Shown one piece after another: positions 20,881-62,385 of a DNA stretch of 64,000 bases; position 1 is the first letter of the stretch, and every line of letters begins with the position of its first letter. The stretch is taken from NCBI GenBank assembly GCA_038496445.1, contig JALMLS010000242.1, positions 1 through 64,000 on the forward strand. Reading direction: 5' to 3'. Under the pieces are notes generated by a model, which saw only the letters and a program-made list of their open reading frames with translations, was not told the origin of the DNA and made no database searches. Both the position numbers and the translations under genes were made by a program. Source of the DNA: Trichosphaerium sp. ATCC 40318 (lineage: Eukaryota > Protista > Tubulinea).

Positions 20881-21230
20881 TCAGAGGCTCTAACTACTGC
20901 TACACAAACAACTGTTGCTCCTACAACAGGTGCACCAACAACAGAGGCTCCTACAACGGCTGCTGCAACAACAAACGCTCCAACCACTGAAGCTTCAACC
21001 ACAGATGCACCTACAACTGGTACTTGATCGATATTATTTTTACCTATCTCCACCTAACTACAGTAGATGTGTCAACTACAGATGCACCTACAACTGCGGC
21101 GCTCCACCAACCGATGCGCCTACTACAAGTGCTCCAACCACTGAAGCACCGACTACAGCAACACCAACTACGGATGCTCCAACAACAGAGGCTACTACTA
21201 AATCTCCAACTACAAGGCTCAACAAATGGT
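20880..21230 (+). repeat. PTTEAPT mucin-repeat gene fragment, paralogous to 17165-17430
   Basis: Same coding repeats and a similar intron (GGTACTTGA.CGAT.TATT...) as in the 17.2 kb copy. Confidence 0.7.
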
Positions 21231-21397
21231 ACTTCCTACTTTACTTTCTAGAACTAACTTTATTTATGGAGCGTAAATATAAAATGTAAAATTGTTTTGT
21301 ATTCAAAAGGCTGCACAATTCGGCAAATGCAAGGCAAAGAATTTGGCTGTTTTCTTGGTTTTTTCTATTTTTTTTGTAGCTCTTCTAATATGTTTAG

Positions 21398-23328: not shown

Positions 23329-23844
23329 TGTACAAAGCAACAGATAACGTTCCAGTGAGAATCAAAACGTAAAAGCCTAATTAAAGTCTGTGTCAGTGGT
23401 TTTGCCTTTGAATGTATTGGTACTGCGTAGTTCTTACGTATTTGAAGTATAATAAAACAAATTAATGATTTGACGCCTGGCGTCTCTAAACGTTTTTTTG
23501 TGTTAGTTAAGTTCGCTACTTAAGTCTTGCTTGAAGTAAGTAGGCCCTATCATTTACAGTAACTGTAATGGACACTGCTGGCAACTCATTGGATAATGAT
23601 GATACCACAATAAAAATCATGGATTCTTCCTTAACGAGAAGCACAGGCTTTTCTGCTCACGAATTCACTGATGTTGGAGCTGCAATTAAAGCATGTAGCA
23701 AGATGTACGCTACATCGCGTTGGTGATAATTGGTGAATGAGTCGTAATACTGGTTACCATGATACTTTATAGTTTGGGTATTATAGCTCCGTTAAAAACT
23801 ACAAGATCGATCTTGTTAGTTCTTGCAAGATCTGTTAAAAACTA

Positions 23845-25531
23845 CAAGATCTTACAGATCTTGTCAGTTCTGGAAAACTACATCCACGTGTTTTTAACCA
23901 TTATTTTATTTTGTACATTGTTAGCAGTTCTGTTGACGTCCTCTAATGTTCATCAGTTGTCTCCTATACTCTAAAATGTACTACTACGCTATACTAATAC
24001 CGTACACTCAACGCAAGATACTGGAAGCGCTTGTAATTTTCTTTGAGATTTTAACGTTATCTCACCTTTAATACCTCTTGTAAATAAACTGTACTTCTAC
24101 ATTTCTACGGGAAAACTATTTTTTTTTTGCGGGAAAATTGTTCAAGTTGGTAACACCACCCAAAAGTTACATAGAAATATAGTTAGCTTTACCCTGACTC
24201 GATCATAGGTAGATTTATCTGTTCACGTGAAATGTCACGTGATTTGTTTTGAGCAGTTCACCGGGAAAAAACAACAATTCATCAAGCAAGTATAAATCTC
24301 AATCATCACAAACATCACAACCACTAGAACAACAACAACTAAAAAACCAAATGTCTAAAGCACCTAAGAAGAATGACCCAAAGTCGAAACCAACAAAGAA
24401 GGACAACGGAGAGAAACCAAATCTAAAGGAATGGATAAACCCCGACAAGAAAGCACCAAGCTTGAAAGATATCCTCAAAAAAGAACCTAAAGACAAGCAT
24501 CCTGCTAAATTCACACTTCCTTTGGAAGATGACAACATTAGACAATTATTACTGGCATGTTCACAAGACGTATACGACTTCAAAGAGCAGGGCAAGTTTA
24601 AGGATCATTTGAGGAACCTAAAAAAACAGAAGGAGTATTTTACAAGTGGTAACTTTATTCAATATGGATTGTACTTGGTTCTAAAAGGCAAGTACAAGAA
24701 CAAGAAGATACTTGCACTCAGAGGAACAGATTCGCTATTTGGTGAGTTTTTTTTTGATTTTTGGTTAAATAAATAATGTACTCATGTACTTTGTAGGTGT
24801 TGTACAAGATATCTCTCTGATTTACTCAGGACCTACAATCAGCAAGGCCAAAAGATGTGCTGTAGAAATAGCAAAGAAATCTGACGTGAACCCTGACTTT
24901 ATTACAGGTACACAAAAACAACAAGAGTGAAATTGGACCGTTGTAAAAACAAAAAAAAAACTAACTTTGGTTTTCCTTAAGGTCACTCACTTGGCGGAGC
25001 TCTTGCTGAAATGGTAGCTTCTGAAATACCACTCCCTGGCGCTTCATTTAATTCACCTGGAGTGTATTCTTGGTTCAAACTGTTTAATCTGTGCGGTGAA
25101 AGCAAAAAGTATGCTAGCGTTTTAAGATATGAAGTGCATTTGACCAAAGGTGACCTTGTTTCCAAGTTTGCTGGTTGCCGTTCCCCTGACAATGGGCATA
25201 TTGCAAAGCCAATATGGCACAAAGCTGTTGCGAAACCTGGTGGACCTAAGGAAGCAAAATGGAAGCATGCTATCAAGGGTTGTATTGCTAGAATTGGAGC
25301 ACTCGAGTAAGAATTGCAGTTCTTGGTATTAGAATAAAAAGACATCGATTTGTCAGAATAAACAAATTACCTTTTTAGATCGTAGTTTCTTTATTATCCT
25401 CCTAAAGCTTCTAAGGAAACTATACAATTTCAATTTTTATTGTAGCGGATACAACTAAGTTAATGACACCACCTTGTTCTATAATATGCGCTGACAACTA
25501 GGGTGTACATTCTGCGTTCTTATACAATTAC
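23845..25531. repeat. Right arm of the inverted duplication (partner 8275-10097)
   Basis: Reverse-complement match to the left arm. Short local repeats (AAAACTACAAGATC) sit at the inner boundary, 23795-23860. Confidence 0.93.
24351..25310 (+). CDS. Class-3 lipase-like alpha/beta hydrolase, copy 2
   Basis: Same exon structure and motifs as copy 1 (LALRGT, GHSLGG, SFNSPG, GDLVS). Confidence 0.8.
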
Positions 25532-27157: not shown

Positions 27158-28324
27158 ATGATTAAAGCACTTGCGATTCTATTTACTCTAATTTCCTTGA
27201 CGCACTCACTAAGTAAGTCAATGATGTTTTAGCTCTACCATTGTGTTAAACGAAAAAGAGAAATAAATGTATGGAGGCTGAAAACTAAGTATGTGGTAGG
27301 TGTAGGCGATAGAGGAGCTTGTACGATAACACATTAAATGACCAATCTCTTGGCACCGTCTGCCCTAGTAAACAACCCTGATTTTATTGTTAACGATACA
27401 GCAATAGAATATCGTAACGAGTTTGTCTCAACTATAGTTGTTGATATAAACACAGACTCGTTTCAATTAACCATGTCATCAATGTTTCGACAAACTACAA
27501 CCGACATCTTTTTAATTGCATGTGTTATGGAGCAACCAGTTATTGTTGAAGGTACGGTGTTAAAAAAGTAGGATGAACATTAAAATAGAATTTGTGTTCT
27601 ATTTTTGTGTCATAGAGGCTATATATACCATTTTTTTTCGACTTTGTTTTTGTAACTATTTGAAAACTAAAATCTGAGACTTCGCTCAAGCTAATGACGT
27701 GTGACTTAAGTTGATCGACTTAGCTTCTTTTTTTTTTTTTGATTGAAAACGTTTGCAGTCACAGTGATAATAGTACTATATCTAACGCTTTAACTACAGG
27801 TATATCATTGGTTTCTTCTAATTTCACCAATAATCCCGTAAATCCTTCCTTCAATCAAACAACATTCAGGTGTGTAATTATCAAATTGAGACTGTTGTTT
27901 TAACTTTTTTAATAGTTTCGTAATACCCATTACAGACTTTCCTCCAGGTTTGTATGAACTGGAATATAGCATAGCTTCATCAAGAGCGCCAACGACACTA
28001 CCACCTACAACATTACCTCCTACGACACTACCACCTACAACATTACCACCTACAACACTACCTCCTACTCTAGCTCCTACAACTCTAACTCCTACTCTAC
28101 CTCCTACAACAGCGCCTCCAACAACACTGCCGCCAACAACACTGCCGCCAAATATGCCACCTTCAAACGTATTTCAATCAACTCCAACTCCTACAACACA
28201 AGAACCAACTGCCGTTCCAACACAATCTCCTGTAACTCAGCTGTGTTCTTCGTCACAACAATTGAAGTCTATCAATCTTGTGTTTTACGTTTCTTTTGTA
28301 GCACTGTTATGTTTACTTTTGTAA
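27158..28324 (+). CDS. Secreted, probably GPI-anchored mucin-like protein with TTLPP repeats
   Basis: Signal peptide MIKALAILFTLISLTHS; globular N-terminal exons; (TTLPP)n at 27990-28160; hydrophobic C-terminal tail. Confidence 0.8.
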
Positions 28325-35708: not shown

Positions 35709-37194
35709 ATGAGCTTCACAGGTATTTCAATTGATGAAGCATTCGACTACTATCATACAAACCATTCAGAAGAATTCAACAAGGTTATGTCTGAACAAAG
35801 CCAGACATTCATAAAACGACTTGAAACAACGTTAAATATCGTAAACGATAGCATTGTAAAACAACTCGATAATATCCTGTTGAAACAAACAGATACCTCC
35901 TTGAAACGACCTAATCATGTAACTCTTGTGGAAAATGATGTTTCGTCATCAAAACGAAAACAGCTTCAAGAGTAAGTCGTTCTTTTTTCATTAAATTAAG
36001 GCTCTCTTCAGAGCTCGTTCAGAAAAATTTTGGCAATTGCTTATTTCTAAGAAATCACGTTATTGTGTTTCGAGATGCCGTTTTTTTTTTGTTTCTTGTA
36101 TCTTTGTGCTAATGACCATAGTATACAACCTACATTGGCGCTCAAAGAACCAAGTATTGTTGATTTTCCACCAGAGGTTATTTCAAATATCTTACGTCAA
36201 ACAGAAGCAAAATCAAGATTCAGTGTTGCTCAATCATGTCACTTGATGGCTGACATCATCCATGACATTGTTGGATATGACATAGTTTATCTTAAAAGTG
36301 TTTCTGATGTTTTACGGATAAGAGAGTACAAGGGTATCATGAGAAACACTACAATTGCATTCAACACCTTACTTAACTCAAAAACTTTATATTCACTATT
36401 ATCTGGTTGTAAATACCTTAATATATGGAGTAAATATCACAAATGTCATATAACTGATGAAAATCTTGTAGAGCTTGCAGGTGTACATACAATCACCCTT
36501 AATGGTAGTGCTATAACAGACTATGGTATTGAACAACTCAAAGGAGTCCATACAATTAATCTTGAGAATTGTTATGGTCTGAAAGGTGAAGGTATCAAAG
36601 CACTTGAAGGTGTTCACTCAATTATCCTTAAAAGTACATTGATTACAGATGAAGGGATAAAGGAGTTACACAATGTGCATACAATCAATATCAGTAATAC
36701 TTCAGTTACTGATGAAGGTATCAAAGCTTTAAAAGGTGTACATACCCTCGAGCTTCAAAGCACTCATGTTACAGATGACGGCATTAAAGCACTTCAAGGT
36801 GTTCATACAATTGATCTTCGTGGGTGAATCTTTTACGGATGAAGGAATCAAAGCGTTAAATGGTGTGCATATAATCAACCTCAGTAAAAGTTCAGTTACA
36901 GATGAAGGTGTCAAAGCACTCAAAAATGTTCATTCAATCAACCTCAGCTGTACTTCAGTTACAGATGAAGGTGTCAAAGCACTCAAAAATGTTCATTCAA
37001 TCAACCTCAGCTATACTTCAGTTACTGATGAAGGTGTCAAAGCACTCAAAAATGTTCATTCAATCAACCTCAGCTATACTTCAGTTACTGATGAAGGTGT
37101 CAAAGCACTCAAAAATGTTCGTGCTATCTCTCTTTTTCGTTGTAAGAATGTGACATTTGAATATGTTCAATCACTAAAGATACCTAAATTTTAG
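35709..37194 (+). CDS. F-box + 22-aa LRR protein (frameshift at ~36822)
   Basis: Probable exon 1 at 35709-35971; F-box SIVDFPPEVISNIL; repeats ITDEGIKALKGVHTINLS. One extra G in CGTGGGTGAA splits the ORF. Confidence 0.8.
36885..37120 (+). repeat. Near-perfect 66-bp coding tandem repeat (~3.5 units)
   Basis: TCAGTTAC(A/T)GATGAAGGTGTCAAAGCACTCAAAAATGTTCATTCAATCAACCTCAGC.. repeated. Confidence 0.92.
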
Positions 37195-44011: not shown

Positions 44012-45754
44012 ATGGAATTATTAGAATCGCAAAACGTTCTTCCACCTATTTATTCTCTTCCGCTTGAAATTCTGGTAGAAATAGCTTGTTTATTAAAACT
44101 AGAAGAGCTCATTACACTACGACTTGTATGTAGGGTTTTACTAAAGTCAGCAGGGTTAACAAGTGTAATGAAGGCACGTGCAGTTCAAAAAAAAATAAAA
44201 CGCGCTTTGATTTTTTTTTAAGAAGGAACTGACGAGGATTTCTTGTTTTTAGGACTATTTGACGACATTCAAGGTTGAATTTCTGCATGAAAACCTACAA
44301 GACTCTGGAGATTCTTTGACAGGTCTTGCAGTGAGGAAAAACGGCGACGTAAGTCATTCTTTTACAAAAAAAGGAAAAAAAACAAACTTGTTTTTTTTGT
44401 AAGATCTATGCTCGTTGTTACGAGTATAATTATCAGTACAAAAGGTCTATATTTTATGCTTTCGTTATTAATAGGTTTTATCATCGTTAGGTCTACTGGG
44501 TAGATGCTACACATCATAGGATTTTTAAATTTTGTATTAAAACGTGGAAAACACTTCTTGTCACTGGTGAGCGCGATTATAAGCATACAGGCACGTGATG
44601 GTGTTTTTTTTTCAAGAATTCGAAACGTTAAAAATTATATAATTTCAACACGTGACATCTCACGTGAAATGTTCGAGCGATAATTGATGTTTTTGTTATT
44701 TTCTTTAAATTGTGTTAAGATAGTTGACAGGTTTGCAAAACGGTCCTCTGGAGCAAGCGACGTTTCGAAATCCTAATGCATTGATATTTGATAAAGATGA
44801 TAACTTACTTGTTGTTGACTACAGACATCATCAAATACGCAAGATAAACTTCAAAACTGGAATGTGCGTTTTGTTTTGATGTTCATTTTTTTTTTTGCTC
44901 TTTATAGACTCGCATGGCATCATGTATTTTACTGAGTGTTATGGTTCCTTAACATATAAATTTATAGGGTCGAATCATTAGTTGGAAGCGACTCAGGTTA
45001 CCTAAACGGTAAAAGAGAAACAGCTTTATTGAATGGTCCAGAAAGTTTTTGTTGGGACAGCAATGGCAACTTAATTATTGCCGATAATGGCAATGGGTGC
45101 ATACGCCAAGTACGTGATTATATAATCCAAACAATCACATACTCATTATTTAAAACTATCACATGCTTAGCACGTGTTATATATAAGTTGTATTCGACAC
45201 TTCTGATATCTGTGTAGCTCTCAAACAATGGAGTTGTTTCAACAATTGCAGGGAATCCAGGGAAGGATAGGACACACCTTGATGGGAAAGGTCAACACGC
45301 TGAGTTCTCATTACCTCACTCTATAACATGCGATTCAAGAAAAGGATCTAATAGACTTTATATACTAGATACAGTCCGTATAGCTAAAAAGAAGAGTCTT
45401 TGTCAAATCAATACTTCAGGAAATGTTAAAACAGTTGTTAACGGAAACTCTCACCCGGACTTTTGTTGGCCTTATGACGTCACTTGTGATGATAAAGGGA
45501 ACTTATATATAGGTGAGAGTACAGGTGTATGGAAGTATTATACAGAAACAGGAGACTTATTCAGACTACGTACAAGTGTGCAGATTTATTCGATTTATTC
45601 GATAGTTTATTTTCCACCTAAAAAAAAGATTTATCTTTCTGGTACAAAGACAAGGGACGGTGGTGCTTACTTTTTAATGACTATTGATGTCAGCCATTAC
45701 AAACGAAATGAAGAACGTCTAGATTTTGGTAAGAAACGTGAAGATGATCGTTGA
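44012..45754 (+). CDS. F-box + NHL-repeat beta-propeller protein
   Basis: F-box IYSLPLEILVEIACLL...LRLVCR; NHL repeats NGPLEQATFRNPNALIFDKDDNLLVVD, LNGPESFCWDSNGNLIIADNGNGCIR, VSTIAG, DGKGQHAEFSLPHSI. Confidence 0.9.
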
Positions 45755-46333
45755 ATAGAGATCACGTGTTTTTTTAACTGGTTAAAAAAAGCAAGACCAA
45801 AAAAGTTTGATGGACTAAGTGTCGACTTTGTAATTGTAGTGTTGATGTTATACACAAAATAAATCAGCCCACATTGTAGAAGAGATCTAGAATTCATTTT
45901 TTTGCGTTAATTTGGTATCCACTTTTCCTGCGCAACAGCTCAGTCTTTACCAATAAATGTAGTGAAATTAAGGTTCTTATCACAGCGTAGTTACTGGTGT
46001 TAATGAACAATAATGGAATAGTCTGTGTTACATCCATGTTATCAATGGTTATCCTTTGATAAGCAAAGAGCAACCTATTAATGTGTACGATTTTACTATG
46101 CATCTTTTACTTTATTTATTTCAAGCACTTAGTGGTATGAATTGAATGACACTATTAGGAATACTATTGAGGACAAATATCTTGATTATTTATTGAAGTC
46201 ATCTATTTTCGAATCTGAGGTTGAGAAGTCGCTTTTGTACCGGTCAAATAAAGTAAAATCACGTGGACTTACTAATTACGCACTAACATTCCTGTATCCC
46301 ATACAAAACGATTAAAGCCATTATTGTATCAAA

Positions 46334-47158
46334 ATGGAAGAAAATTACACCGAAGGCGTTAATCTGTACTTATTCGACCTGTTGGCGCTACCAGTTGAAG
46401 TAATAGTTCATATTCTTAAACAAGGAACTTATACGCTCCACTCAGCTCAAACATGCCGTCTGATGAGAGATATTGTAAGAAACCATGTTGGATATGGTCA
46501 TATCACTATTACCAACAAAAGCCAATTGAAGATGCTTTCAGGGAGTCCTTTATTGAAGAATACAGCCATCTGTTTGAATGATCTACCAATATATGATTGC
46601 CACTTGCGTTTACTTTCAGGTGTCCAAAGTATAAACTTGAGTGGTACATCAATAACTGATGAGGGCTTGAAGGCATTGTCAGGTGTACACACAATCAACC
46701 TTTCTAAATGTAAAATAACAGATGAAGGTGTCAAGATGTTAATAGGTGTACATACCATTAACTTGCATGCTTGTAAATTGATAACAGGTGATGGTATTAA
46801 AGCATTGGCTGGTGTACATACAATTAATTTGGGATCTACATATGTAACAGATGAAGGTCTGAAGTCATTGTCAGGCGTTCATACAATTAATTTGAGTGCT
46901 TGTAGATTGATAACAGATGAAGGTGTCAAGGCGTTGGCAGGTGTTCACACTATCAACTTGTTTGCTTGTAATTCAATAACAGGTGAAGGCATCAAGGCAT
47001 TGGCAGGTGTGTATGAAATTCGTTTGTCAGGTAAAGCTGGGACAGACGAAGGTTTAAAGTCTTTGGCAGGAGTGCACACTATCTTTATTTATAACCATTC
47101 AGTTACAAAAGAACATGTTAAGGCATTAACAGGTGCAACCAAAATACATTGTTTTTGA
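46334..47158 (+). CDS. Intronless F-box + LRR protein
   Basis: LLALPVEVIVHIL F-box; about 8 repeats of ITDEGxKALxGVHTINL. Paralog of the 36 kb gene. Confidence 0.88.
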   Translation: MEENYTEGVNLYLFDLLALPVEVIVHILKQGTYTLHSAQTCRLMRDIVRNHVGYGHITITNKSQLKMLSGSPLLKNTAICLNDLPIYDCHLRLLSGVQSINLSGTSITDEGLKALSGVHTINLSKCKITDEGVKMLIGVHTINLHACKLITGDGIKALAGVHTINLGSTYVTDEGLKSLSGVHTINLSACRLITDEGVKALAGVHTINLFACNSITGEGIKALAGVYEIRLSGKAGTDEGLKSLAGVHTIFIYNHSVTKEHVKALTGATKIHCF

Positions 47159-48907
47159 ATTGTAGCTCCCCACCTTTCACTTCAATAAACTCTTAATTAC
47201 TTCACGCTGTCTAACAATAGTTTTTTGGTACTTGGTAACTAACCATTTCCTTTTGCCCTTTTTAAGCAAGAAGTTTTATAATGTTGATCTCTGACGCCAA
47301 AGCATCATTCAGGTGACCCTAAATGACTTACATCAGGTGATATATAAAAACAGACAAAGGCTTTAAAAAGGAATGACATCGCATTGTAAAGCACTAAAAA
47401 TGTTGCCTGCTGTTGTTCTTTGTTTTGACAAAAAGTTTGTTTGGTTTCTTTTTTAGTAATATGTACATAACTGATACAAGCGACTATGTCTTCCCGTATT
47501 GCTGGTTATATGTTGAAGTTCTAGTATGGTTGCGTTTGTGGTTGCTTTGTAGTATTCAGAGCTTGAGGAAACTTGTGTTATTCTTTACTTTTGTTTGCAC
47601 AAGGAACCAGTTAGCGTCTTCAAAGTTATGTTGGCCCTTTACCTACATCTTCTACAATTGAGTTAGCCCTAGTTATCACAAAACGGCTGTTTTTACAACG
47701 ACGTTCAAGGACGCTATAAAGCGTAAAAACGTGATTTGAGAAAAATACATTGGAAAATAATCATTGATGCTGTCTCTTTGTGAACAGTTCTCATACAACA
47801 ATGACTAAATATGGCATGCTTTATTAGCAAACCAACAACGCCTTTTAAAAAACACTTTGAAAAAGTCTGTACACTTCAAGCCTAAAAACAACGCACATCA
47901 TCAACAGTTTTTTTGACTATAAATAATTTCTTAAGAGCATACACATAGTGGGTAGGGTAATGGAAATGACTGGACGATCTTTGTGACAGCGGACCGTATG
48001 GACCGTTTACGAACTGTTTTTTCGTTTCAGTCTGAGACCGTTATATTCTGATAACAGCTCTAAACCAGATGTCCAGTCAATAGCCATTTTTTAAGTATGA
48101 ACCAGTTCAGACCGTATTGTTCCAGTATTTCTTTGAATCGAACTTCTACTTTCGCTAAAAATTCAAAGGAAAAGTCAACCTTAATAAACACTCTCGTTTC
48201 ACCTTGTTCGTTGAACTATTTACAGTGTAACTAACTCTCGTACAACATTCTTCTTGGATTATTCTACAAAAAAAGAGACGATTATTGGCTATTGTACCGG
48301 TATTGTTATTTAATAGCACTTTCTTTGCGTTTGCATGGTTTAAGCTTAACTTTTCAGTTTTAGTTCGAAAATATCTCGAACTCGGTTTAATCTACCGTTC
48401 TGCGTTTAAATATGGCCAACATTGATAGTACAGACAACGGTAAGTGAAGCTCCTCAATTTTCAGCTCCATAAAAAAAAAAATTTGTCACGTGCCATTACG
48501 ATTTTCACGAGAAACGTTTCCGCTTTTCGGCGTGGGTTGCCCATTGCGAGAAAAATTCGCTGTAGCGTTTTTTGCACACAATTTTGGCGCTGTCACTAAA
48601 CAAACAAAAGTGTTTGGTTTAGTATGTCCGTGCATAGGCAAGGCAACCCACAAATTATTAAATCTTTTTGTGTAAAGACTTTTGAAAAGTCCAAAGAAGT
48701 TTTCTCACTGAAAAAAACCAATTAAAAACATTGTTTGGCATCACTTCGCGTAGAGGATGCTACATAGGCATTTTTTCAACTTTTTGCACAAAGTGAGGGA
48801 ATCGCAAGAAACTCAAAAGTACTTTTTCGTAACCCATACTTTTTCGTGATATATTCAAAGCCTAAAAGATTTTTCTTTACTTAGTTGTGCTTATTTTACT
48901 CACAAAG

Positions 48908-51900
48908 GTTTGGACATAAAAGAAGAGTATGAAGTAGGAGGTCATCTCAGATATAGGGGAGAGGTAAAGAATGGCAAGCATGACGGTTTTGGTGAGCTGT
49001 ATCATATAAAAGATATTGGCGAAATCAAACAAGGCGATACTCTCGAATACAAAGGTCAGTTTAAGGACAATAAGTTTCATGGTGATGGCGAGCTGTATCT
49101 CTCAGATGGTACTCTCGAATACAAAGGTCAGTTTAAGGACAATAAGTATCATGGTGATGGTGAGCTGTATCGCACAAATGGTACTCTCGCATACAAAGGT
49201 CAGTTTAAGGATGGTGAGGTTCATGGTGATGGTGAGTCTTATGTCTCAAATGGTACTCTCGCATACAAAGGTCAGTTTAAAGGCGGTTTATATCATGGTG
49301 AGGGTGAGTTTTATTTACATGGTAGCCTCTATTACAAGGGTCAGTTTAAGGACCATTACCGTGATGGTTTTGGTGAGCTGTATCATATAAAAGATATTGG
49401 CAAAATCAAACAAGGTGATACTCTCAAATACAAAGGTCAGTTTGAGGCCAATAAGTTTCATGGTGATGGTAAGCTGTATCACACAAATGGTACTCTCGAA
49501 TACAAAGGTCAGTTTAAGGACAATGAGTATCATGGTGATGGCGAGCTGTATCTCTCAGATGGTACTCTACAATACAAAGGCCAGTTTAAGGACAATGAGT
49601 ATCATGGTGATGGTGAGCTGTATCTCTCAGATGGTACTCTACGATACAAAGGTCAATTTAAGAACAATCAGTATGAGGGTGTTGGAGTGTATTTTTATCA
49701 AAATGGTACCAAGTACATTGGGCAATTTGACAACAACAAGATTCAAGGTATTGGTGAGAAGTATTTGGCAGATGGTCGCAAATACATTGGTAAATTTGAG
49801 AATGCTAAGGCAGTAGGTAAAACACAGAAAAGTATTGCTGGAAAACCAGACCAGGCTGCCTTTTCTAACAACATGGATAAAACATTCTGTGAAGAATCCG
49901 TTTTTCCTAGCAATGATGTACAAGAAGATATAACACCAGTTACTGTGTGTTCTGATGGCACTACAGATGAGAGAGATCTCAAGAAATTGTTTCCGAATCC
50001 AGATAATACTATCCTTGATATCAATGATCCAACTGTACAAGGTATACCAGATGGAAAAAGAATGGTATTTGAATTTTATTCTAAAAGACGCTACCAATAC
50101 TGTAACAGTATTATTTTGAACCACCAAGATAGCTTTGAATCAGGTCTTTATGGTGATATTGTATTTATCTATGACCTTTGTAAAAAAGATCCTGAGATAT
50201 CACTTCATGAAGGTGCGGTGTCTTTTATACCACTACCTTTATACTTATTGATTATTTAAATAGTAACAACTATGGCACGTGGTCTTTCTGGAGTACGTGT
50301 GATACCCATAAAAAAGGACAAAATATCAGACAAAATGATACAACAGTTTAAACACATTTATTGGAGTGACCTCAGTAGTTTAATGAGACATCACATTGCT
50401 GATGGAGTGAGTCATAACAACTACGATTTTGTTGAGCAATTAGAAGCCAAAATAATGGTTGTAGGCCATGAAGGATCAGGTATTTAAGCTTGGATGAGTG
50501 ATACACTAAATATTTATTAGGCAAGACAACACTTGTGAGGACATTGGCAAAGGAAACAAATATAATAGCGGATTCAACTATTGGTTTTGATACATCACAT
50601 CTCTCGTATGTTTAACTACTTTAGCGCTTGGGTTTAATGTGCTTTAGGTTCCAGGGCGTATCATTCACAGTGTTAGACTTTGCTGGACAGACGGAATACA
50701 AAGGATTACATAAGTACTTTTTAGCAAAGCAACTTACAATTTACATCATCGTTGTAAGTTCATAGTACACCAATATCACACTTGTTTCCTTATCATTCAT
50801 CTTAGATTGACTTGTCAACATCAATCAAAGAGCAGCAGAAACACCTTAAATATTGGTGTCGGGCTTTAAATGAGATACTACATGATCAAGACCCAGAGCT
50901 ATACTCAGTGATTGTATTTGGATCCAAGTTAGATATCTTTTTAGGCGATATCAAGGCCAATAAACAATCACTGCTCCCTATCGGACTATCACTAGTACAG
51001 TACTTGTGCTTAGACGGTACCACCTTTATAACTTTTTTACAATCGCTTATTCTTTGTTGTTTAGGAACAAGTGCTCTTGTCAAATTATTGGATCAGCAAG
51101 CCAAGTACTTGAAGGCCCAATATCCAAAAGTACCATTGATCTACATTGACATAAAAAAAGCACTTGAGAATACAATCACAAACAAGGATACCCTAAAGGG
51201 TAACATCATATCAGTGTACGTTGTGTTTTAGCTGTAGTGGGTCTTGCTTTTGCTGATCAAGTATTTAATTAGGAGGAAAGTAGTAGAACTGATACCCAAG
51301 ATATGTGCAATGTCTCCAATAGAGTTGATTGCCGCATTAATTACCTTCATTCCATTGGTAGCATCATGTTTGATGAGGTGTGCGCTTCTCAAATGAGTAA
51401 TATGCTTGCTTAAACAACTGACTTGTCTGCGTTTAGTCATCGTACACGCCATGTTTGAACCCTCCTATTCTATCTCGTATCATGAGTGCTTTTTTAGCAC
51501 CCAAAGAACATCTTGATAGATTGATCAAAAACAACACTCATAGTCATCACGCTGTATTCACTGACTCAGAAGCTAAATCTCGAATCTCAAAGCTATTTCC
51601 AAAATGCACTAAACGTGAAGTGAAGCAGGTGATGAAATTCTTGGTACAAATGTCGTTCTGCGTTCGCTTGACAGAAGAAGAAAAGGTAACAGATAGTGTA
51701 TGTACTCTATAACTCATTGTCAATGTATTTATTCAGGTTGTGTATGGCGCTAATGGATACCTTATTATATCGCTATTACCTAAAGCTGATATGTTTTACT
51801 TTCCTCCATTGACCCAAAAGGAGCAAAGTATTACGTTAGTTCAGACAAAGAACAAGTACCCACATGAGTTACCAGAAGTATTCTCTTTATCTAAATCACC

Positions 51901-54390
51901 AACAAAGTGGAAGATATTATCGTACACACCTACAACAGACTCTAAAGTTGAACATAAAGTGGTAGAAATAGTCACCATAAACAAGGAAACCAATAAAATA
52001 GTACGGCGTATTTCATATTCCATAACAATTCAAAACTAACAATATCACGTGTTAGTCACTACCTCATCAATATGAGGTCATACCACATGTTTCAAAGTTC
52101 TTGGCATACACCTTTAACTCACAAGATCTACCTATAGACATATTTAATGACTTGCAGAGAAGACTGAGAAGTACGCCAACATGAACGGTTTATGATCAGA
52201 TACTAAACGCTAAAAATAGAGTTCCAAAACAAAGAGTTTCGTTTGTTTTCAAACTTGATTGTACTCTCTGATTTCTATGGCAATATCATCACATTGTATT
52301 ATGTTGATCATAGCATCAAAATTGTCATTAGAGGCATAGTACCACAGCTATGGATGGTAATAACATGAACAGAAGTTTAAACATTGACATTTTTAGGAAT
52401 CTCTTGATACATACCTAAAACCTTTGGACATCACTCCAATTCCGCTATGTCCAGTCAGCATACAATTTGGAGAGTTTGTTGAGGTCACAAACAATTTGTA
52501 TGAGTGCAAGAAGATAAGTGAGTGTATTAGGCATACATTTATACACGTGTAGTTGTCATATATTATACAACTAGATGGCATATTTCCAAGTTAACAAACT
52601 GATTATTTCTTAGAACATGTTGTCACTGAGACTCATTTAAAAGAAGGATTTCCTGTACTCAAACATGCGAGACATAATCTGTGGGGTAGCTTGCATGGAG
52701 AAAGATTTCTAAAAATGGGTGACTGGGAAACACCTCAACAGTATCCTGGGTTACGAATCACGTTTCTCACAAAAGATGAAAAAAACAAAGTACAACCCAC
52801 ATTTGAATACCATGACTTTCTTACTAAAAGCATTGATAAGGAACGTTATGATGAGTATTTGAGAGCTAGCAACATGTTTTATGAGTTCATGGGGACTGAC
52901 AGTGCTTCATTTTATGAGTTGGAGAAGATTGCGTTCTTGAACAATCCAAAACTTGAAGACAAATTTGAGGAGCAATACAATACTTTTGTCAAGAAAGTAC
53001 TTCAATCCAAAAAATCAGGCAAGTCACACCCTTGGTCAGCTTTTTCTAATAGTATAGATGTGAATGATGATTCTACTGTGGATGAAGATACACATAAATT
53101 ACAAGAACGGACTTTGAATCATTTGAAGAGCCATGTGATGCGTGTTTCAGGCAATGAGCAAATCAACCTCATACCTGGATTACACGGTACATCAGAGGTA
53201 TATCACATTTATTCTCATTAGTACCAAGAAATAGTTAACCTTAGATTTTAGGATTCTAGTTTTAAGATCGCTTGGAACAACTTTAGAGAACCACATGAGA
53301 ATACAAACAAGAAAGATGGAGGATACTTTGGTATGGCTTAGTAATAAGTTAGTTTAATTAACTAAAAACTTACAAAGGAGCTGGTATTTACTTCACTCAA
53401 TACCCTGATTGTGGTAAGTCATTTTATACAATCAAAGCTCTCTCACTCAACCAATTTTGTATTCTTGTATTAACAATTGAGGTAGGAAGGAAGTATGCTG
53501 AATGGAACGGAGAGAAGAAACCACGCATGTTGATATCATGGATAATGATGGGAAAACCTTATCCAGTAACAGAGAAACCCATACCAGGTCCCAACTCTCT
53601 TTATGGCAAAGAATGCAAGGTACAACTCTTTTTTTCTTTATGTGACTGCTTATAGTTTTGTTTTTAGAAAGGTTATGATTCTCACTATGTCCTCACTAAA
53701 TCATCAACTGGGCATCCATGTGGCATTGATGATAAAATAGATCAAAACGAGATTGTTGTATTTTCAAAAAACCAAGTATGTAGACATCACCACGTAGCCT
53801 TTCTGCCATATTACAATGTGTTCTTATTTAATGATCTAGATTCTTCCACGATACCTTGTGTACTACAAAGCAATAGACAGTACCAATATAGACTCATATG
53901 AACTCAAGTACAGGGATGCTAAATGTCTTGTTTTGTGGGTTGACGCTAATCTATCAGTTGAAAACAAGAAGATTATGGAAATGCTTAAAAACAGGCCAAA
54001 GAAGACAGAGGTACACAAACCAAATACAGCCATTCATCTAAAGAAATACAAAGGTGTTGGTGATGAAGTCATCATCTGCGGTTTTGGCATGGATCGATAA
54101 GTTCAAAGGGTTCTGTAACAACAGATTACATATCATCACAAATAGATATCGAAAAGGTGATGGAGATGAGCTAGCAGCAGAGAAGTTGATAAAGAGCATA
54201 AGAAAAATTAAAATATGTGCCAAAACACCTATTCTTGTTTTTTGTGGTATGTCAACTACCCCTTTATTAATCACGTGATTTTTTGTTAACACACTGTTTG
54301 TTAGGAGACACGTCAAAGGCAAAATACCTCAAGAAAAAATACAAAAAGGTTTCCATCACGAATAAAGTTCAAGATGTATTGGAGATGTAA
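48908..54390 (+). CDS. Roco-family multidomain protein: MORN repeats - degenerate GTPase - Roc - COR - PARP-type ADP-ribosyltransferase - pseudo-receiver
   Basis: MORN units YKGQFKDNxxHGDGELY. Roc: AKIMVVGHEGSG|KTTL, STIGFD, LDFAGQTEYKGLHKYFL, LKYW, VFGSKLD. COR-like region includes LLP. ART: NNPKLEDKF, LHGT, GYFG|AGIYFT, YDSH, NEIVVF, Q|ILPRYLVYY. REC-like: LVLWVD...IITN...TPILVFC. The first exon was not located. Confidence 0.85.
48940..49810 (+). repeat. Coding tandem array of ~69-bp MORN units
   Basis: Repeated TACAAAGGTCAGTTTAAGGACAAT...CATGGTGATGG.GAGCTGTAT...GGTACTCTC, about 12 units. Confidence 0.93.
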
Positions 54391-55386
54391 GAATAGCTTA
54401 CATCTTTCCTCAAAAGTTTACTATTACGCAAGCTATGTAGTTCAGACATTGCTTCTTGCTTCTACCAACAATGTTAATAAATTAAGAACGCACTACTGTT
54501 GAAACGGTACTCAAAATGTAATAACATAGTTGTCAACGAACAAATGCCACTTTTATACAAGCTTGTCTTTTTGGTGCTTCAATGAGAGACGACACGAGGA
54601 GCTAAACGTTAATCCCATTAAATAAGTACATCACCTTTTTATGGAATGACGTTATTGTAAAATGTGAAAATCCCTACTCCCAAACTTCCTGTGATGTATA
54701 TAGTGCCTACGCCATAGCGTATTCAACCGCGCAGCGAAAATTTCTCTACTTCTCGATTGGAACACCGGAAAAGGACAAAGTCGCGAAATGTTGTTCGGCG
54801 GATTGTTTGCATAGTATACCGCCTTGTTATCAAGAGTCGTGATGTTAATTAAACGAGTTTCGGCCTAAATCATGGTCGATTAGTTCAGAAAGACAAAAAC
54901 CAAATCAAAACCATCTATTATGCGGCTACATGACAGAGTTTATCACATACAGTTGTTTATTGGTGCTACCTTCTAAACTTGCTTCCAAAAACAGCAAAAC
55001 GCGAATAAATACACGATATCCACTACGCATACGCATTAAAACACTGTAACAGACGAATACTAGAATTATACTAATTAGGAAACCAGAAATGCGCTTTTTT
55101 TATAAAAATAAAGTAATTAGATCTCGACGCGTAAAGAGTAGTATCTAGACACTTTATGTAGTGATCCAAAAACAACAGAAAACTAAAAAATTTCATATTT
55201 AGCGAAAATAGGTCAATAATTAACGACAACTATCGTACACCGTCATAGCTCTAGTTTTAATGCAAACATAGGGGTTGTAGCGGATCCGAAGCGAAAACCG
55301 AAAACCTGAAATTGTTATTTTTAATTAGCTAAAAAAATCAAATAAAGTCAATAGAGGAGATTATTTTCTGCAACTATTTGACAAAC

Positions 55387-56726
55387 ATGCAACACGTACA
55401 AGCTGTCATATATTTCTGTTTTTTAGTCTTATTCGGACAACTCGCAGTCGGTCAGACTCTAGAATACGAGTTTAACTTTAATGGAAATCTATTAGATGAC
55501 GTTGGTGACGGGTACCCCTTTTAGGTGTTCCCTCACATGATTATTTACTTTTTCTCAAATAGAAACTTAACAATAGGCATACCAGAGGTCTATAACATGA
55601 CAGAGGGCTGTCTAGAGCTACCATTGAACACAAACCCTTCGTTGGTACTAAACAACCCGGACATTCTAAAAAACGCACCATACACTGTTATACTTCAAGT
55701 CCAAGTACTACAAACAAGTTCTTTCGGGAGAATCCTTGGATGGGTACCTTCCAGTGACAGTGGCTTGCTCTTTCAAGGAAATACCATTGATTATTTTGGA
55801 TTTTCTGGTAGAACTGATTCCTACAATGTGCTTGATGATATCAGCTTGATCTTTTTCTCGTACGCCAAAGAAATTTGAAACTTAAAAGAAACGAACCTTT
55901 ACTTCTTGTTTTTTCTTACTCTTTCATTCACAGGTATGACCCTACAACAAAAAATGCTACGTTTGGTCTTGTGGATAATTCAACAATACGGTCATCAAAC
56001 ATTGTATCAACTGGGGCCCCAAATATTGTGGATACAGTACGAATAATGACAGATAATACTGGAAGCTTCGGAAATGAGCATTACAAGACATGTCTTTATA
56101 AAGTGATGTTCTATTCCGGAGCTTTTATTCCAACATCAATCGAGCCACCTACATTACCACCACCAACAACTACAGCACCAAGTACAGTGTCTCCAACAAC
56201 TTTACCTCCAACAACGCTACCTCCAACAACTGTGCCTCCAACAACTGTATCTCCAACAACTATGCCTCCAACGACTGTGCCTCCAACAACGCTACCTCCA
56301 ACAACTGAGTCTCCAACAACTGTGCCTCCAACGACTGTACCTCCAACGACACTACCTCCAACAACTACAGCACCAAGTACAGTGTCTCCAACAACTTTAC
56401 CTCCAACAACGCTACCTCCAACAACTGTGCCACCAACAACTGTATCACCTACAACACCTACAACGCTAGCTCCAACTGAAGCACCAACAACTGTATCACC
56501 AACAACGCTAGCTCCAACTGCACCTCCAACGACTACAGCTCCAACGACTGAAGCACCAACAACTGCGTCTCCAACAACTGCATCTCCAACAACGATGGCA
56601 CCTACAACTGAAGCTCCAACAACTGATCAACCAATCACTCTGGGATTAGCATCTAGCACATTTTTTACGCTACCTTCGTTAGCTTTGTTTGTTGTTACAA
56701 CAGTTGCATTACTTGCAACACAATAA
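55387..56726 (+). CDS. Secreted/GPI-anchored protein: LamG/concanavalin-like domain + TTxPP mucin stalk
   Basis: Signal peptide; YEFNFNGNLLDDVG start typical of LamG-like domains; YTVILQV...RIL; long 15-bp-unit repeat at 56150-56630; hydrophobic tail. Confidence 0.8.
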
Positions 56727-57288
56727 AACTCAAGAGATAATATGATTTTAAATTTCAGCATGTGTAGCTTCGGGAAGCGCCAATAAGTTAACAATAAGCA
56801 ATACCCAGCTGGCACGTGGCTACATTAAAACTTGGCCATGTACCTAGGTTCTTTCACGTAAACTACACTCAATTTTCTCTTTTAGAAATGTAGCTTTTCA
56901 GAAAACAAAGAACAAATTAAAGACGCACTTCGTTAGCAAGAAAGTGGTTTTATCAAAAAAAACAATATTTATAAAAAAATCTAAGAGTAACATGTAATAT
57001 TGCATGCTGTTACATATCCCGAAGATAGTATTTATCAGACATTTTCTCACAGCGCCCATCACACTTTTCAAGTTGACAATCAATGACTCGTTTTATCCTG
57101 GGTTTGAAAATAAGCACAACACGGCTTAACTTTTATCTACATTCTTTAGCAAGAAACTGTATTTTTAGAGTCCACGTGACTTGGGTTTTTTGAGTTTTCA
57201 AGCCAAGCTACTGGATTTCTTTGTTAAACTTTTCTGAAACGGGCGTGCGAAATATGTTTATGTAATATAGGCAAGAGCTATCGTACAA

Positions 57289-60200
57289 TTACAGTACACA
57301 GTTGCTAGCAACCAGTTTTAAAAGCGCTGCTTTAAAACCCTTATAATTCTGGGTAGCAGCTTTGAGATAGCACTCAATATACTTGCTGCCAGTCACAACA
57401 TCCCACGTCTTTTTAAGTATGGCAAGATTATCGATACTATCCTGTACCACCCAGTTGTTGTATGCAGTATCAATTGAAGTCTTCATGCGATGATAACTGC
57501 AAGTATACAATGACACAAAGAAAGGAATACAAATCGCCAAATTGATTGTAGACATCGGTATCAGCTGATATTCTAGATTCTTTACCGTACATATATGCCT
57601 AAACTTCCATCCCTCACGTCTTTTCATTTTTGTACCATCGCCTGAAGCACTTCCCCAACAGGTCAAGACATAGCGTGGATTTGTGGTACCACAGCTCTCC
57701 ATAATGGCTTTCTCTGTTATATTTCTACAACAAGAAGTTTAGTTCTTGGAAAAAAAACTGTAAGCGGTACCTGTGAACAATACCCCGCTTGTGCACTTCT
57801 TCTAGAGTATCAATGAGTTCCAATGCTTTTGTTATGTTGAATGTAGTTTCATCAGGTTTTACTAGATACTCCATTGTAATACCAGTTGATGCAATATGAT
57901 ACTAGTAAGAGAATGAGTTTTGTTTCAAAGCTCTTCAAACGTACAACTTTGGGAACTCCAGGGATATTCACCAAGCGACTCAATACTTCTATTTCATTAG
58001 TGCCCAAGGATGCAGTTAAGTACTGTTTAAATGCCACTGGTTGTGGACTGCTACGAGTGCTGATGTCCACCTTGTAAATGGTAGCATTGAAACCTACTCC
58101 AAGTACTTCTGTAGGTGTATATTGCTTACCCGCAATTGTACATAATATTGGAGTATACCCAAGGTTTTCTAATGTTAGGCTTAGCAGGTGTAACAACTGC
58201 ATTAGTCCCTCATCCGCAGTGTGAGAGATATTCAGCGCTCTGTACATAGCTGTAAAAAGAGATGTTATGTATTCAACACCTTTAGAGCCTAAAGCGTCAC
58301 CAGGCGTGTCTGCTGTTTCTACCGTTTTCTTAAAAACGTCCATTACGTTTGTTTCAGTATAGCTGTATGATGGTCTCGAGGAATCATCCTTCAAAAGTGT
58401 CATTTTGAACATTTTAATTTTTACCATATTCTGAAGAATACCGTATACGTATTTGCGATGAGGTTGTGCTTCCATAATTGAATGCATATTTTGCCATACT
58501 CTACCTTCCTCATCTGGAGTGAAATTATCTTCTAAACAATTCAATATGTAAGTCAAACTGGCTCAAGTTTGCGTACTAGAACAAAAAACAATATTCCATG
58601 TCAACACGTGATGGTGCCACGTGAGTTCTCCATGTTCAGTATTTTGAAGCTGTTTTGGTACTACGACTATACCGGGGCTTGAAACAAAGGTATCATCTGG
58701 CCGGAGAAAGGCACTGAGGGTTTCAGTAATGGGTATGCATGTATCTTTATTTTCAACGGAGTTTCGAGGGTTCTTGGAACGAAAGAATGTGAATACCTCT
58801 AAGCAACGTTAGATAGTGCACCTTTGATACCTGTACCTTTTAATTTGATTTTATCAAAGAAGTGTTGATTTCTCTTCTTGGCACCGGTGCAAACATACGC
58901 AGTATCTTCCAATCCTTGTATTTCTTAGCACGTGTATTTTCAGAAAATTACAAAAAAACGTACTCATCTTCAGTTTTTCAGCTAAGTACTGCTGTTTGCA
59001 TTGGCGCTCTAGTTCTTTATACACTCTAGTTTCCTTTTTTTGTGTAAGTGGATTAGATCTTGTTGTTTGTTTTACTCTTATCAGCTTTACTCTATCATTG
59101 CATGTGCATAGAGAAGGAAACTTTTTACATTTCTTGCAACGATTGTCAGCTGTACTTGAAATACAATTGAGGATTTCATTTAAAACACCTTTGTAGTCTA
59201 TGGCATCTGCTCGTTGCAAACAACGTCTCCAATTGAAGGGAAGAACCCTTGCCCAAACCTTTTCTAGAGCTTCAGCGCGCACTCTTTTGAAAACCTGATT
59301 CCCCCTTGCGTGTGCCTCCAGAAAACCCTCATATGCTAAGTCGACTTTATCCTTGTTTTGTTTCGACATACAATAGTATGCCATCACAAAAATGAATGAG
59401 TACAAGTCATCCTTTGGTGTGTATGCATTACTGGAGAGGTACTAGCCCACGCTTCATACAATTGTGGAGCGAACATGAGACCCCCACTTAAACTAATTCG
59501 TCCAGTATCTGTTGTGGCGGCTCCCCAATCAATCAACATGTACCGTGGTTTTTCTTCTTTGCAAGTTGGTGGTAGTAGCATGATATTCGAAGTAGATATG
59601 TCTCTGTAGAAAATAAGAATGAGTTGTAAAAGGAATAGATAATATGTGGTTACTTGTGGATAACACCTCTACTGTGAACAATCTCAAGAGTTTCAATTAT
59701 GTGTTTTGCAAGTAACTCAAAGTCAAACTCAGCGTCTCTGTAGCTTTGACAAATACAATCCATTGCAAATCCTACACCTGGGCTTCACCAACCTAAACAG
59801 CTTGAATAAAGTAGTATTGGTTGATTTGGAAAGAAATCGTTGATAAACACGTACAACTTTTGGAACACCAGGAACATCTTTGAGAAGATGTAATATTCTC
59901 ATTTCTCGATCCATTTTTGGCTTTATTGGGTCACCCTTATTAAAGTAATTCTTGAACGCAACATACTTTGGAGGATCATTGTTGGACAAGTATATCATGT
60001 AGACTGCTCCATGAGCACCTGTACCAAGCACTTTTCGAGGTACATACGCAAACCCATTGATTGTAAATACTTTCGAAATATATCCAAGATCGCCAAGCTT
60101 GTAATTTAACAAACTTACCAAATGCTTTAGCCCTTCACCTGGAGCATCTGAATCAATTAAATCCATTTCGGGCGTCGAATAATACATGGGTTTGTATAGA

Positions 60201-61112
60201 TGTCCTTGTGGCAATCTTGAAAAATTGAATTTTCTGATAATTTTGAAGTATTCCATACACAAATTCACGACGAGGTTGGGCTTTAAGGGTTCTATGCATG
60301 GCACTCCATATCATGCCTTTATCATGTGCGGTGAATGAAGCTAATAACACAATAATAAGCAACAAATAAACCAGTCATTTGCATACCGTTGCCTTCCAAT
60401 ATGTCCCAAGTTAACACGTGATGATACAATGTACAATCTCTTTCACGAATCGTTTTGAGTTGTGGTATGATTCGAAAACAATTTGGAAGAAATGATTTGG
60501 CATCTGGAACAACATTTGCACGAATATTTGGACAAATATCATCACGTGATAAAAATGATGCGAAATCAGCAGTGTATTTGTCAAGAGAACATGATTTGAG
60601 CTTTAACATCATCAATTGAAATGTTTGACATGACTCAATGTATTGCTTAGACGTTTCAGGATGACAAAATGAGTGTTGATATTCTGTTTTCTCAGCAATG
60701 GAATGTGCAATGGCAGGATACCCTTACGAAAACAATTAGAAAAAAAAATCAAACAGTAAAAGGTCATACCTTGCATCGTCCTCTGCCTCAAGGATGTATC
60801 TCTCAATAAATTCAAGTACAGCTGCTCGTTCTCATTTTCCATCACTCTTTGGCGTTTGTGTTCGTATTCATTTTCTTCTTCAGCACAATGCTGTCTTTTG
60901 TTTTGAAGAATTCGTAATTCTGCTTTTATTTCTTCAACTTCCTTGCTCAGTTTTTTTTTGAGCTCTTCAGATATGATACTATCGCCAGGTCTTTCGTTTT
61001 TGGCTTCTACTAATTCATGAGTTGAAACCTTGCTGTGTATTTCGGTTTGTTCAGTACCAGTGGTCTGTTTGTTGCAAGCATCAAACACCATATCAATCAT
61101 TTCTGCCGTCAT
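57289..61112 (-). pseudogene. Crinkler-like tandem (restriction-endonuclease-fold + protein kinase) x2 gene with several frameshifts
   Basis: Two homologous modules each carry HHVLTW, AQP.R..VYGILQN, GL..L..LL...L..LGY, VLGxG, VAFK, GVPKV. Kinase 1 has VIHK|DISTSNI and LIDWG; kinase 2 has IVHR|NIT and LTCWG. Frameshifts near 60200, 59780, 59418 and 57860. Confidence 0.7.
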
Positions 61113-62385
61113 TATGCTGTGCTAATAAAGTAAGCAAACAAGCGATTTAGAAAGTAGGTATTGCAGAAAACTGGATCTTAAATAAAATACTGATAATTGC
61201 TTATACTGTAGTATGCACGCGCAGGTGCAGTGATTAAAGCGATTTAATTGTTGTGTAGATTGAAATTATTAAAAACAACTCAAAATAAGGTTTTTAGGTT
61301 TACGCCATAAGGACACGCACAAAGAAACCTGTTAGGCTAAAATTATCTATTATAAGACGTTTCCCGACTGTTCTAACTTGCTTGCTTCTGTGTACTTTAG
61401 CTGACTTGTCGAATTACGTAGAAGGTTGTTTACCTTTTTAAGTAAGGTCAGAACATCACACAAAAACCACCAAGGTTTTTTTCCAACGTTCTGTAGGCAC
61501 ATGCCTCTTTTGGAAACCTTAGTTACCACTATTTTAATGGAATGTGATTCGATGTTGGGGTTATCGGAATTGACCTGGAAAATCGACAAAAAAGATTACT
61601 GATAATCACGTTTTCATTAGTTCGTCGGTAGTCATAACCTGAACATTCTATGGCTCAATATTTGATAAAATGGATCCAGGTGAATCAAATATTTGTGGCT
61701 TGTTACAATGTACTGAATGCTTATTGTGATTAGATTAGGCAAAAAAATGAGATTATCAATATTCTTTTTGGTCGATAATCCTCAATTCCTTCCTTTAGTT
61801 TACATTTGAAATATCCGCGCTGCATTGTTGTATTTATTAGGAGCAGTTGAGCATGAGCAGCAAGACTGGACACTTGTAGATATATCACAAAGTGCAAAAT
61901 TCACAGATCTTAGGTTCCCTTGGAAAGTTTCAAATCCGTCAAATCTGACACATTAGGGAATGACACGTACGTCAGGAATTGACTCATAATATTGATAGTG
62001 TCAAAGCCAACAGTTCTGGGATCTTAATAATTTGAACTTGCAGCTTTATTTGTCGACCTCATATCCACTCCCTCCTACACTGGCTAGTTGTTCATTCCCA
62101 ACTATCTTATAGACAGCTATACTTCTGTATAGAGTTACACAAAGTTTTCAACGCCTACTGGTAAGCATGCGAGAAGTTTCGTTTCCGTGTGTTGTACCAG
62201 ATCTCTAATTGCTAGTAAGATAGTAAAGACGCGCAGAATAGGGTTTTAAGCGCATTGAAAGTAAAATATCTCAACGCAATGCAAGTAAATCATAACACGT
62301 ATCAACTCAAACGGATACGCTGGTGGTTTTATTTAAGTATACAACGTAGGTTTCGTATCGAATACATATCTATAAGCGTGAGCAT

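Follow-up and report, generated by a model that had tools for sequence, protein, structure and literature searches.

Within a 64,000-nucleotide (nt) stretch from the amoeba Trichosphaerium sp. ATCC 40318 (contig JALMLS010000242.1, positions 1 to 64,000; hereafter the window), a plus-strand gene at 48412-54390 encodes a Roco protein whose model product reads, in order, 12 MORN repeats, a segment of ~155 amino acids (aa), a Roc GTPase, a COR region, a PARP-like ADP-ribosyltransferase (ART) and a receiver fold. Judged from the sequence, this domain architecture is real, and the domain calls of a first-pass annotation (MORN, Roc, COR-like region, ART with an H-Y-E triad, receiver-like tail) held when checked by profiles, by Pfam on the paralogous protein P0002 and by a fold match. 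We regard the domain order, the splice model, a frameshift, spliced relatives in two public runs and the pseudo-receiver fold as established. With a confidence somewhat short of even, we further read the locus as a Roco with a PARP-type effector, in whose intact relatives the GTPase switch would unleash ADP-ribosylation, probably as a means of defence against intracellular invaders. The parts of the gene lie as follows.

48412..48439, plus strand: exon 1, 28 nt, with the ATG and 9 codons, upstream of 48908, where the first-pass annotation had begun the gene.
48908..50212, plus strand: exon 2, 1305 nt, intronless, holding the MORN array and most of the pre-Roc segment.
About 48952..49852, plus strand: MORN array, aa 25-325, 12 repeats, all in exon 2.
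49900..50430, plus strand: pre-Roc segment of ~155 aa, aa ~345-500, no meaningful Pfam match.
50431..51091, plus strand: Roc GTPase, aa ~501-660, exons 3-7, with G1 (K518), the G2 Thr, G3 DFAGQ and G4 SKLD.
51092..51827, plus strand: COR-A, aa ~660-850, containing the frameshift.
51337..51339, plus strand: 1-nt frameshift, one base fewer than in relatives; the frame as assembled stops at aa 743.
51828..52697, plus strand: probable COR-B, aa ~850-1060, placed by position only, much of it covered by relatives' spliced contigs.
52614..53197, plus strand: exon 14, a single open frame with the probable COR-B's end, a linker and the ART's N-terminal half up to the triad His.
52907..53867, plus strand: PARP-like ART, aa ~1130-1355, exons 14-19, with H1222, Y1257 and E1337.
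53918..54390, plus strand: pseudo-receiver and stop codon, aa ~1372-1494, called from the AlphaFold model of P0002 and from structure matches.

A three-frame reading of 46000-57000 gave 21 exons and 20 introns, all 20 of them GT-AG, from an ATG at 48412 to a stop codon ending at 54390; the first intron measures 468 nt and the other 19 are 40-96 nt long. The model protein has 1494 aa and is stop-free once one base is added behind 51338. Thus, of the single spliced gene first proposed, the splicing stands, the start moves upstream of 48908 to the 28-nt exon before the 468-nt intron, and the frame is not open as assembled, running into the stop at aa 743 unless an extra base is supplied near 51338. 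No second copy of the model was found by tblastn within the window.

Evidence for the splicing comes largely from contigs of two public runs, X1 and X2, which hold a small share of the window's words and neither of which is on record as RNA. Most of these contigs are 80-99% alike to the window and therefore derive from relatives or paralogs, not from the window locus itself; their loss of introns suggests, on sequence grounds, an origin from mRNA. Among the matches listed, relatives' spliced contigs support at least 17 of the 20 introns. Joints are present for introns 8, 9, 11, 12, 13, 14, 15, 18, 19 and 20 as well as for 6 and 7 (intron 7 placed only to within one codon), and introns 1, 2, 4, 5 and 16 are supported by loose contig ends continuing into the neighbouring exon; for exon 1, an X1 contig runs on from 48441 into sequence like that of exon 2. 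For intron 17, the support is that the model protein is collinear with P0001 and P0002. No contig support was seen for introns 3 and 10 among the matches listed in X1 and X2; intron 3 is required to complete the P-loop. These two introns, together with the lack of a listed contig bridging MORN and Roc, would suit the idea that MORN and Roc-COR-ART are separate genes or that the model strings splice sites together by chance. We consider this very improbable, as a single stop-free frame (48850-50259) runs through the MORN array and the pre-Roc segment, a relative's contig splices exon 2 to exon 3, and P0002 is collinear with the model over exons 14-21. The link between COR and ART is free of splice assumptions because both lie in the single frame of exon 14, which contigs of X1 and X2 match.

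The Roc motifs named in the first-pass annotation were confirmed, with G1 (GHEGSG|KT, 50464-50528) interrupted by intron 3, G3 (DFAGQ) at 50676 and G4 (SKLD) at 50923; G2 (DSTIG) lies at 50571. Taken alone, Roc scores 64 bits against the bacterial Roc profile and COR-A scores 15.9 bits (best shuffle, 10.0), with 0 of 500 shuffles as high in either case. Together, aa 501-850 give a continuous Roc-COR-A match of 73 bits (E 1.5e-22; best of 200 shuffles, 5.8 bits) to a Roco profile made from 18 of 21 bacterial COR-A loci, L014, L018 and L019 having been omitted as short, broken or weak. COR-A directly follows Roc, an arrangement that holds only with the frameshift read through. For COR-B, the profile, which is bacterial and not eukaryotic, returned -0.2 bits, with 171 of 500 shuffles as high.

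The ART motifs, too, are located as first annotated: LHGT at 53180, GIYFT at 53383 and NEIVV at 53746. P0002, a Trichosphaerium transcript protein (taxon 498012, Trichosphaerium sp. ATCC 40318), is 64% identical to the model over aa 1199-1494 and passes the cut-off of PF00644 (38 bits; cut-off 26.7). It keeps H, Y and E, the last of which is also kept in P0001 and P0004. In a weak alignment with the bacterial PARPs L025-L027, H and Y fall on their HG and G-x-Y motifs, and E is assigned by motif order only. Single window exons gave no PARP match in Pfam because they are too short, and PDB sequence searches with ART pieces and with P0002 returned no PARP match. A single-sequence fold of exon 14 reached a predicted local distance difference test score (pLDDT) of 36.5 and stayed below 50 throughout. 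WGR and PRD, whose position before the catalytic domain is a feature of Clade 1 (DNA-dependent) PARPs (PMC2964712; this and the other papers cited are drawn on for parts of their text, to which our statements about them apply), were both absent from exon 14, which includes the whole pre-ART stretch, in Pfam at E<=1. Word-index protein searches with exon 14 (382 and 32 candidates) and with the tail exon (20) yielded no homologue, metagenome scans with either exon no locus, and phage tblastn with exon 14 no match. ESM Atlas leads all fell below 0.9 and were set aside; those for exon 14 were bacterial clusters and the one for the tail was AIG1.

Structure prediction, made via P0002, is confident for the receiver fold (pLDDT 80-96 over residues ~181-302) and mostly below 50 for the ART half. 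Three comparisons place the P0002 tail with receiver domains: Foldseek (RcpB, E 1.4e-4), a profile match (RcpA, E 0.011) and VIA-align (Z 13.4, root-mean-square deviation 2.7, 119 residues aligned). As for the receiver-like tail of the first-pass annotation, the fold is therefore right and two receiver residues are missing: Thr/Ser-Asn replaces the Asp that ends beta-3 in the window and in 9/9 true homologs, and the beta-5 Lys is also absent. In the profile alignment, the Thr falls on RcpA's Asp and the Ser on RcpA's Lys, which we take to be the phospho-acceptor ending beta-3 and the conserved receiver Lys ending beta-5, respectively. By these models, the tail is a pseudo-receiver, i.e., a receiver fold without the phospho-Asp.

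The pseudo-receiver has a conserved motif of its own (T/S-N-x-x-R...D-G), and its family found no meaningful match in Pfam or NCBIfam. With the tail exon as query, a full HMMER search over 1.84 billion representatives gave 10 proteins at E<=0.001, of which 2 are close; one of the ten, the plant formin P0009, is a chance match and was excluded. The three named sources of these homologs are all amoebae. We also note that P0003-P0008 and P0010 group as a family of their own in amoebae and environmental data. The pseudo-receiver follows an ART-like stretch in P0001, P0002 and P0004, proteins that cover the C-terminal end only and are, like the other homologs, too short to bear on an upstream Roc-COR. 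Against viral structures, the P0002 model gave only generic receiver and histidine-kinase matches. At some places, two or more distinct contigs occur in X1 and likewise in X2, and the likeness between P0001 and P0002 is only 64%; the gene therefore probably belongs to a small multi-copy family.

The combination of an ART with such a cap might also be an NAD+ glycohydrolase or an NAD+/ADP-ribose-binding scaffold, with the cap binding or processing the nucleotide product as proposed for cREC. Receiver folds free of histidine kinases are indeed predicted to bind or process ADP-ribose derivatives (PMC9503650, PMC8195603), and the family's own motif would fit such a role. However, none of 12 members matched the cREC Pfam model at E<=10, the second aspartate is absent, and transferases typically have the complete H-Y-E triad (PMC2964712), leaving this explanation improbable in our view.

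The frameshift in COR-A was judged against the relatives. An X1 contig carries one extra base behind 51338, an X2 contig reads through the site in the L-N-Y-L-H-S frame, and the COR-A helix and the following 'ylh..G' motif align with the Roco profile only in the extra-base frame. Since relatives in both runs keep the frame and the profile fits that frame alone, the lesion is private to the window copy. An in-frame exon 8 made through a weak donor near 51214 was rejected; it avoids the stop, but loses the helix that aligns with COR-A and mismatches the relatives' contigs. The lesion borders a short A run, and an intronless F-box/LRR-like gene (LRR, leucine-rich repeat) at 36051-37191 on the plus strand has a second 1-nt frameshift near 36820, observations compatible in equal measure with assembly indels and with gene decay.

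We find it evenly poised whether the copy in the window is a genuine pseudogene, or yields no more than a 742-aa MORN-Roc protein, whatever the family does; this judgement stands apart from those on function. The stop at aa 743 and the frame kept by relatives in both X1 and X2 speak for it, and at least half of the Ectocarpus ROCO loci are similarly disrupted (PMC3341825). On the other hand, the 4.5 kb of coding sequence showed only one lesion, all catalytic motifs and 20 splice pairs are intact, the missing base borders the A run, and the shift near 36820 may be an assembly indel just as well as decay.

Pfam detects MORN on exon 2 at E 2.5e-27 in 8 stretches, and we counted 12 motif starts. 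Inside the array, a block is duplicated (48981-49280 and 49362-49661, 88.7% identity). The six units of exactly 24 aa give pN 0.129 and pS 0.127, with 13 of 24 columns invariant and changes in columns 6-10, 15-16, 18-20 and 24; diversification of the repeats is only suggestive on this sequence evidence. Among 37 differences to X2, drawn from 40 of 136 rows, 12 of 30 codons are silent, a count that mixes paralogs and so gives no selection estimate. The array is intronless over 1305 nt, against 6 introns per coding kb in the rest of the gene, a pattern consistent with a module that was added or expanded recently. Viral contigs scanned with the array yielded no locus, and a genome scan found three weak Bacteroidota MORN loci; a giant-virus-type origin of the array is only a possibility.

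Beyond the array, part of the pre-Roc segment (50153-50211) is matched by contigs of both X1 and X2. The reading of aa 336-500 as a degenerate second GTPase found no support (Roc profile -1.6 bits, 243 of 500 shuffles as high). In the published Trichosphaerium data, the 1538-aa protein TRSP14875.t1, labelled only 'MORN repeat protein' (PMC10521059, Table S2, row 4053), comes close to the model in length and may be a member of the family.

How might such a protein work? In the GTPase-released ADP-ribosylation that we favour, the MORN array would bind a protein or membrane ligand, and the Roc-COR nucleotide cycle would alter the dimer-monomer state, which in turn would lift a restraint on the ART. 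The non-phosphorylatable receiver is a candidate for the latch because no PRD occupies that place. Once released, the ART would ADP-ribosylate itself or targets, or drain NAD+, and growth arrest or a local shut-down of the infected cell could follow. The GTP-dependent dimerisation assumed in the first-pass annotation represents one side of a debate, as the GAD (GTP-dimer) model is opposed by a newer GTP-bound-monomer model (PMC6337361).

Several precedents are consistent with a role in defence. At least 24 interchangeable effectors occur at the C-terminus of bacterial LRR-AP-GTPase-COR proteins (PMC8195603, section 15), the pseudogene-rich Ectocarpus ROCOs have been proposed as pathogen receptors (PMC3341825), and an Acanthamoeba LRR-ROCO is among candidate pattern receptors (PMC4053784). 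The Trichosphaerium genome is reported to have short introns and numerous giant-virus-like genes, most often of the F-box and MORN kinds (PMC10521059), and amoeba-infecting giant viruses encode ADP-ribose-processing domains (PMC9503650).

A number of observations weigh against this interpretation. The copy at hand, with its spliced frame ending at aa 743 before the ART, cannot make the ART as assembled. For the ART itself, hhalign to L025-L027 is weak (E 0.026; reversed control, 0.45), a three-sequence bacterial PARP profile did not match the model, and most of P0002 residues 1-171 fall short of a pLDDT of 50. No contig spanning MORN to ART is among the matches listed in X1 and X2, and 49826-50140 has no contig cover there at 80% identity, which leaves a MORN-Roc fusion in the relatives putative. 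The repeat pN/pS of about 1 on six units does not show positive selection, and 12 repeats in one exon speak against exon shuffling of the Ectocarpus type. PADLOC gave no hit. The pseudo-receiver also occurs after a RhoGAP in Nolandella (P0010) and doubled in Clydonella (P0006), which, as far as sequence can tell, suits general signalling. Finally, the defence role is proposed by analogy.

The RhoGAP in particular lends itself to a housekeeping explanation, in which the protein would serve GTP-switched, ADP-ribosylating signalling for membrane traffic, the cytoskeleton or cell fusion and division, the ART replacing an LRRK2-type kinase output. Membrane and cytoskeletal proteins often contain MORN repeats, and the array bears no clear mark of positive selection. 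Moreover, group 2 amoebozoan and animal Rocos have a signalling kinase in the same slot (PMC6337361, section 5). Yet several divergent paralogs, a recent duplication of a repeat block and a broken copy are better explained by birth-and-death evolution than by one housekeeping gene, and the 10 tail matches among 1.84 billion representatives, 2 of them close, suggest a narrow range; we think this explanation possible but rather unlikely.

Equally doubtful to us is the most specific form of the immune proposal, an amoeba receptor resembling the nucleotide-binding leucine-rich repeat (NLR) type, with a variable MORN sensor, a Roc-COR switch and a PARP latched by pseudo-receivers that would act through ADP-ribosylation or NAD+ depletion. 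The MORN array would then possibly have been taken from the giant-virus-like MORN pool of Trichosphaerium. An immune receptor had been put forward in the first-pass annotation; it draws on analogy with the proteins of Kaur 2021 and Zambounis 2012, but the one-repeat-per-exon hallmark of Ectocarpus is absent and repeat diversification is only suggestive. If true, this proposal would provide the first PARP gated by a GTPase and a concrete means by which amoebae defend themselves against giant viruses.

The remainder of the window holds a mixed set of genes, mostly labelled by eye. Just upstream of the Roco gene, 46316-47158 (plus strand) is a second intronless F-box/LRR-like open reading frame (ORF); the giant-virus-like genes reported from Trichosphaerium include F-box genes (PMC10521059). 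A lipase-like gene with a GHSLGG motif is present as an inverted duplicate (8275-9688 and 24099-25531, 92.5% identical), and a second block, at 9833-10096 and 23845-24099, is shared as well. Long minus-strand ORFs at 57289-61121 contain two tandem kinase-like domains behind a coiled-coil-like stretch, which to our eye recall what we take to be Crinkler-type conflict kinases. Three plus-strand Pro/Thr-rich, mucin-like repeat genes with hydrophobic tails (55839-56726, 27890-28321 and 20894-21286), related among themselves at about 73%, are probably surface proteins. By eye, 21979-23361 (minus strand) looks like a divergent EF-1alpha/eRF3-like translational GTPase. NHL-repeat-like (44724-45754, plus), G-alpha-like (18447-19267, minus), tyrosine-phosphatase-like (2876-3475, minus) and BCS1-like AAA (6530-6919, plus) ORFs, also labelled by eye, are unremarkable neighbours that show no evident connection with the Roco gene.

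Known PARPs are activated by DNA breaks, nucleic acids or polymerisation; a PARP wired to Roc-COR would be a new way to control ADP-ribosylation, and an ART output would give a non-kinase read-out for the disputed dimer-monomer mechanism of Rocos. Amoebae host giant viruses and intracellular bacteria, and few of their defence effectors have been tested. The family offers a small expressible unit of ART plus cap, about 360 aa, and the cap defines an amoebozoan pseudo-receiver family that lacks a Pfam or NCBIfam model. The value of the find is lowered by swappable Roco effectors being an established theme, by the copy being broken as assembled and by the immune role being inferred.

This Roco architecture, in which a PARP-type effector is joined by a pseudo-receiver of a new family, is apparently undescribed in the literature, although automated annotations of Roc-COR-PARP/MORN fusions may exist. 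In agreement with the first-pass annotation, a search of freely accessible full texts found, in the passages covered, no Roc-COR fused to a PARP or to MORN. In the parts covered, PARP, ribosyl and MORN do not occur in PMC6337361 or in PMC11378527 and its supplement, nor do Roc, GTPase and MORN in the ARTD survey (PMC2964712), and PMC9334734 gives Roco-TIR and PARP genes separately. The main text of PMC10521059, as far as covered, has no occurrence of PARP, ADP-ribos or Roc; its supplement has at least 176 of 'MORN' and at least 36 of 'ADP-ribose', with neither 'roco' nor 'COR domain' among the matches listed. For the prokaryotic Roc-COR conflict proteins (PMC8195603), section 15 names no ART effector, the covered part of supplement file 6 contains neither 'PARP' nor 'MORN' (its COR+A, COR+P and COR+R rows list ACYC, ARSR-HTH, PNPase and REase7), and 2 of 19 PARP rows in supplement file 4 were seen, neither with a GTPase.

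Those prokaryotic proteins are nonetheless the closest in plan, sharing the order of repeats, Roc, COR and enzymatic effector and having several paralogs per genome; theirs carry LRRs, whereas the window gene is eukaryotic and intron-rich, with MORN repeats and an ART plus pseudo-receiver as effector. The Ectocarpus and other brown-algal LRR-ROCOs (PMC3341825, PMC11378527) likewise form a repeat-Roc-COR family with frameshifted copies and a proposed role in immunity, but have LRRs encoded one repeat per exon and no known enzymatic effector, in contrast with 12 MORN repeats in one exon and an ART. LRRK2 and the Dictyostelium group-2 Roco kinases (PMC6337361) share Roc-COR, a catalytic output and a C-terminal cap, with a kinase where the window gene has an ART, WD40 where it has a receiver fold, and ankyrin repeats or LRRs where it has MORN. 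The ART resembles the PARP-like ARTD family (PF00644; PMC2964712) in its H-Y-E triad and motif order, and its paralog P0002 lies above the Pfam cut-off; it differs in being fused to Roc-COR, with neither WGR nor PRD detected. From cREC (PMC9503650), which has two active-site aspartates, the tail is set apart by the missing beta-3 Asp. With RcpA, RcpB, Rcp1 and CheY-like receivers it shares the five-stranded alpha/beta fold (Z up to 13.4), yet in place of the phospho-acceptor Asp and the beta-5 Lys it carries a conserved motif of its own.

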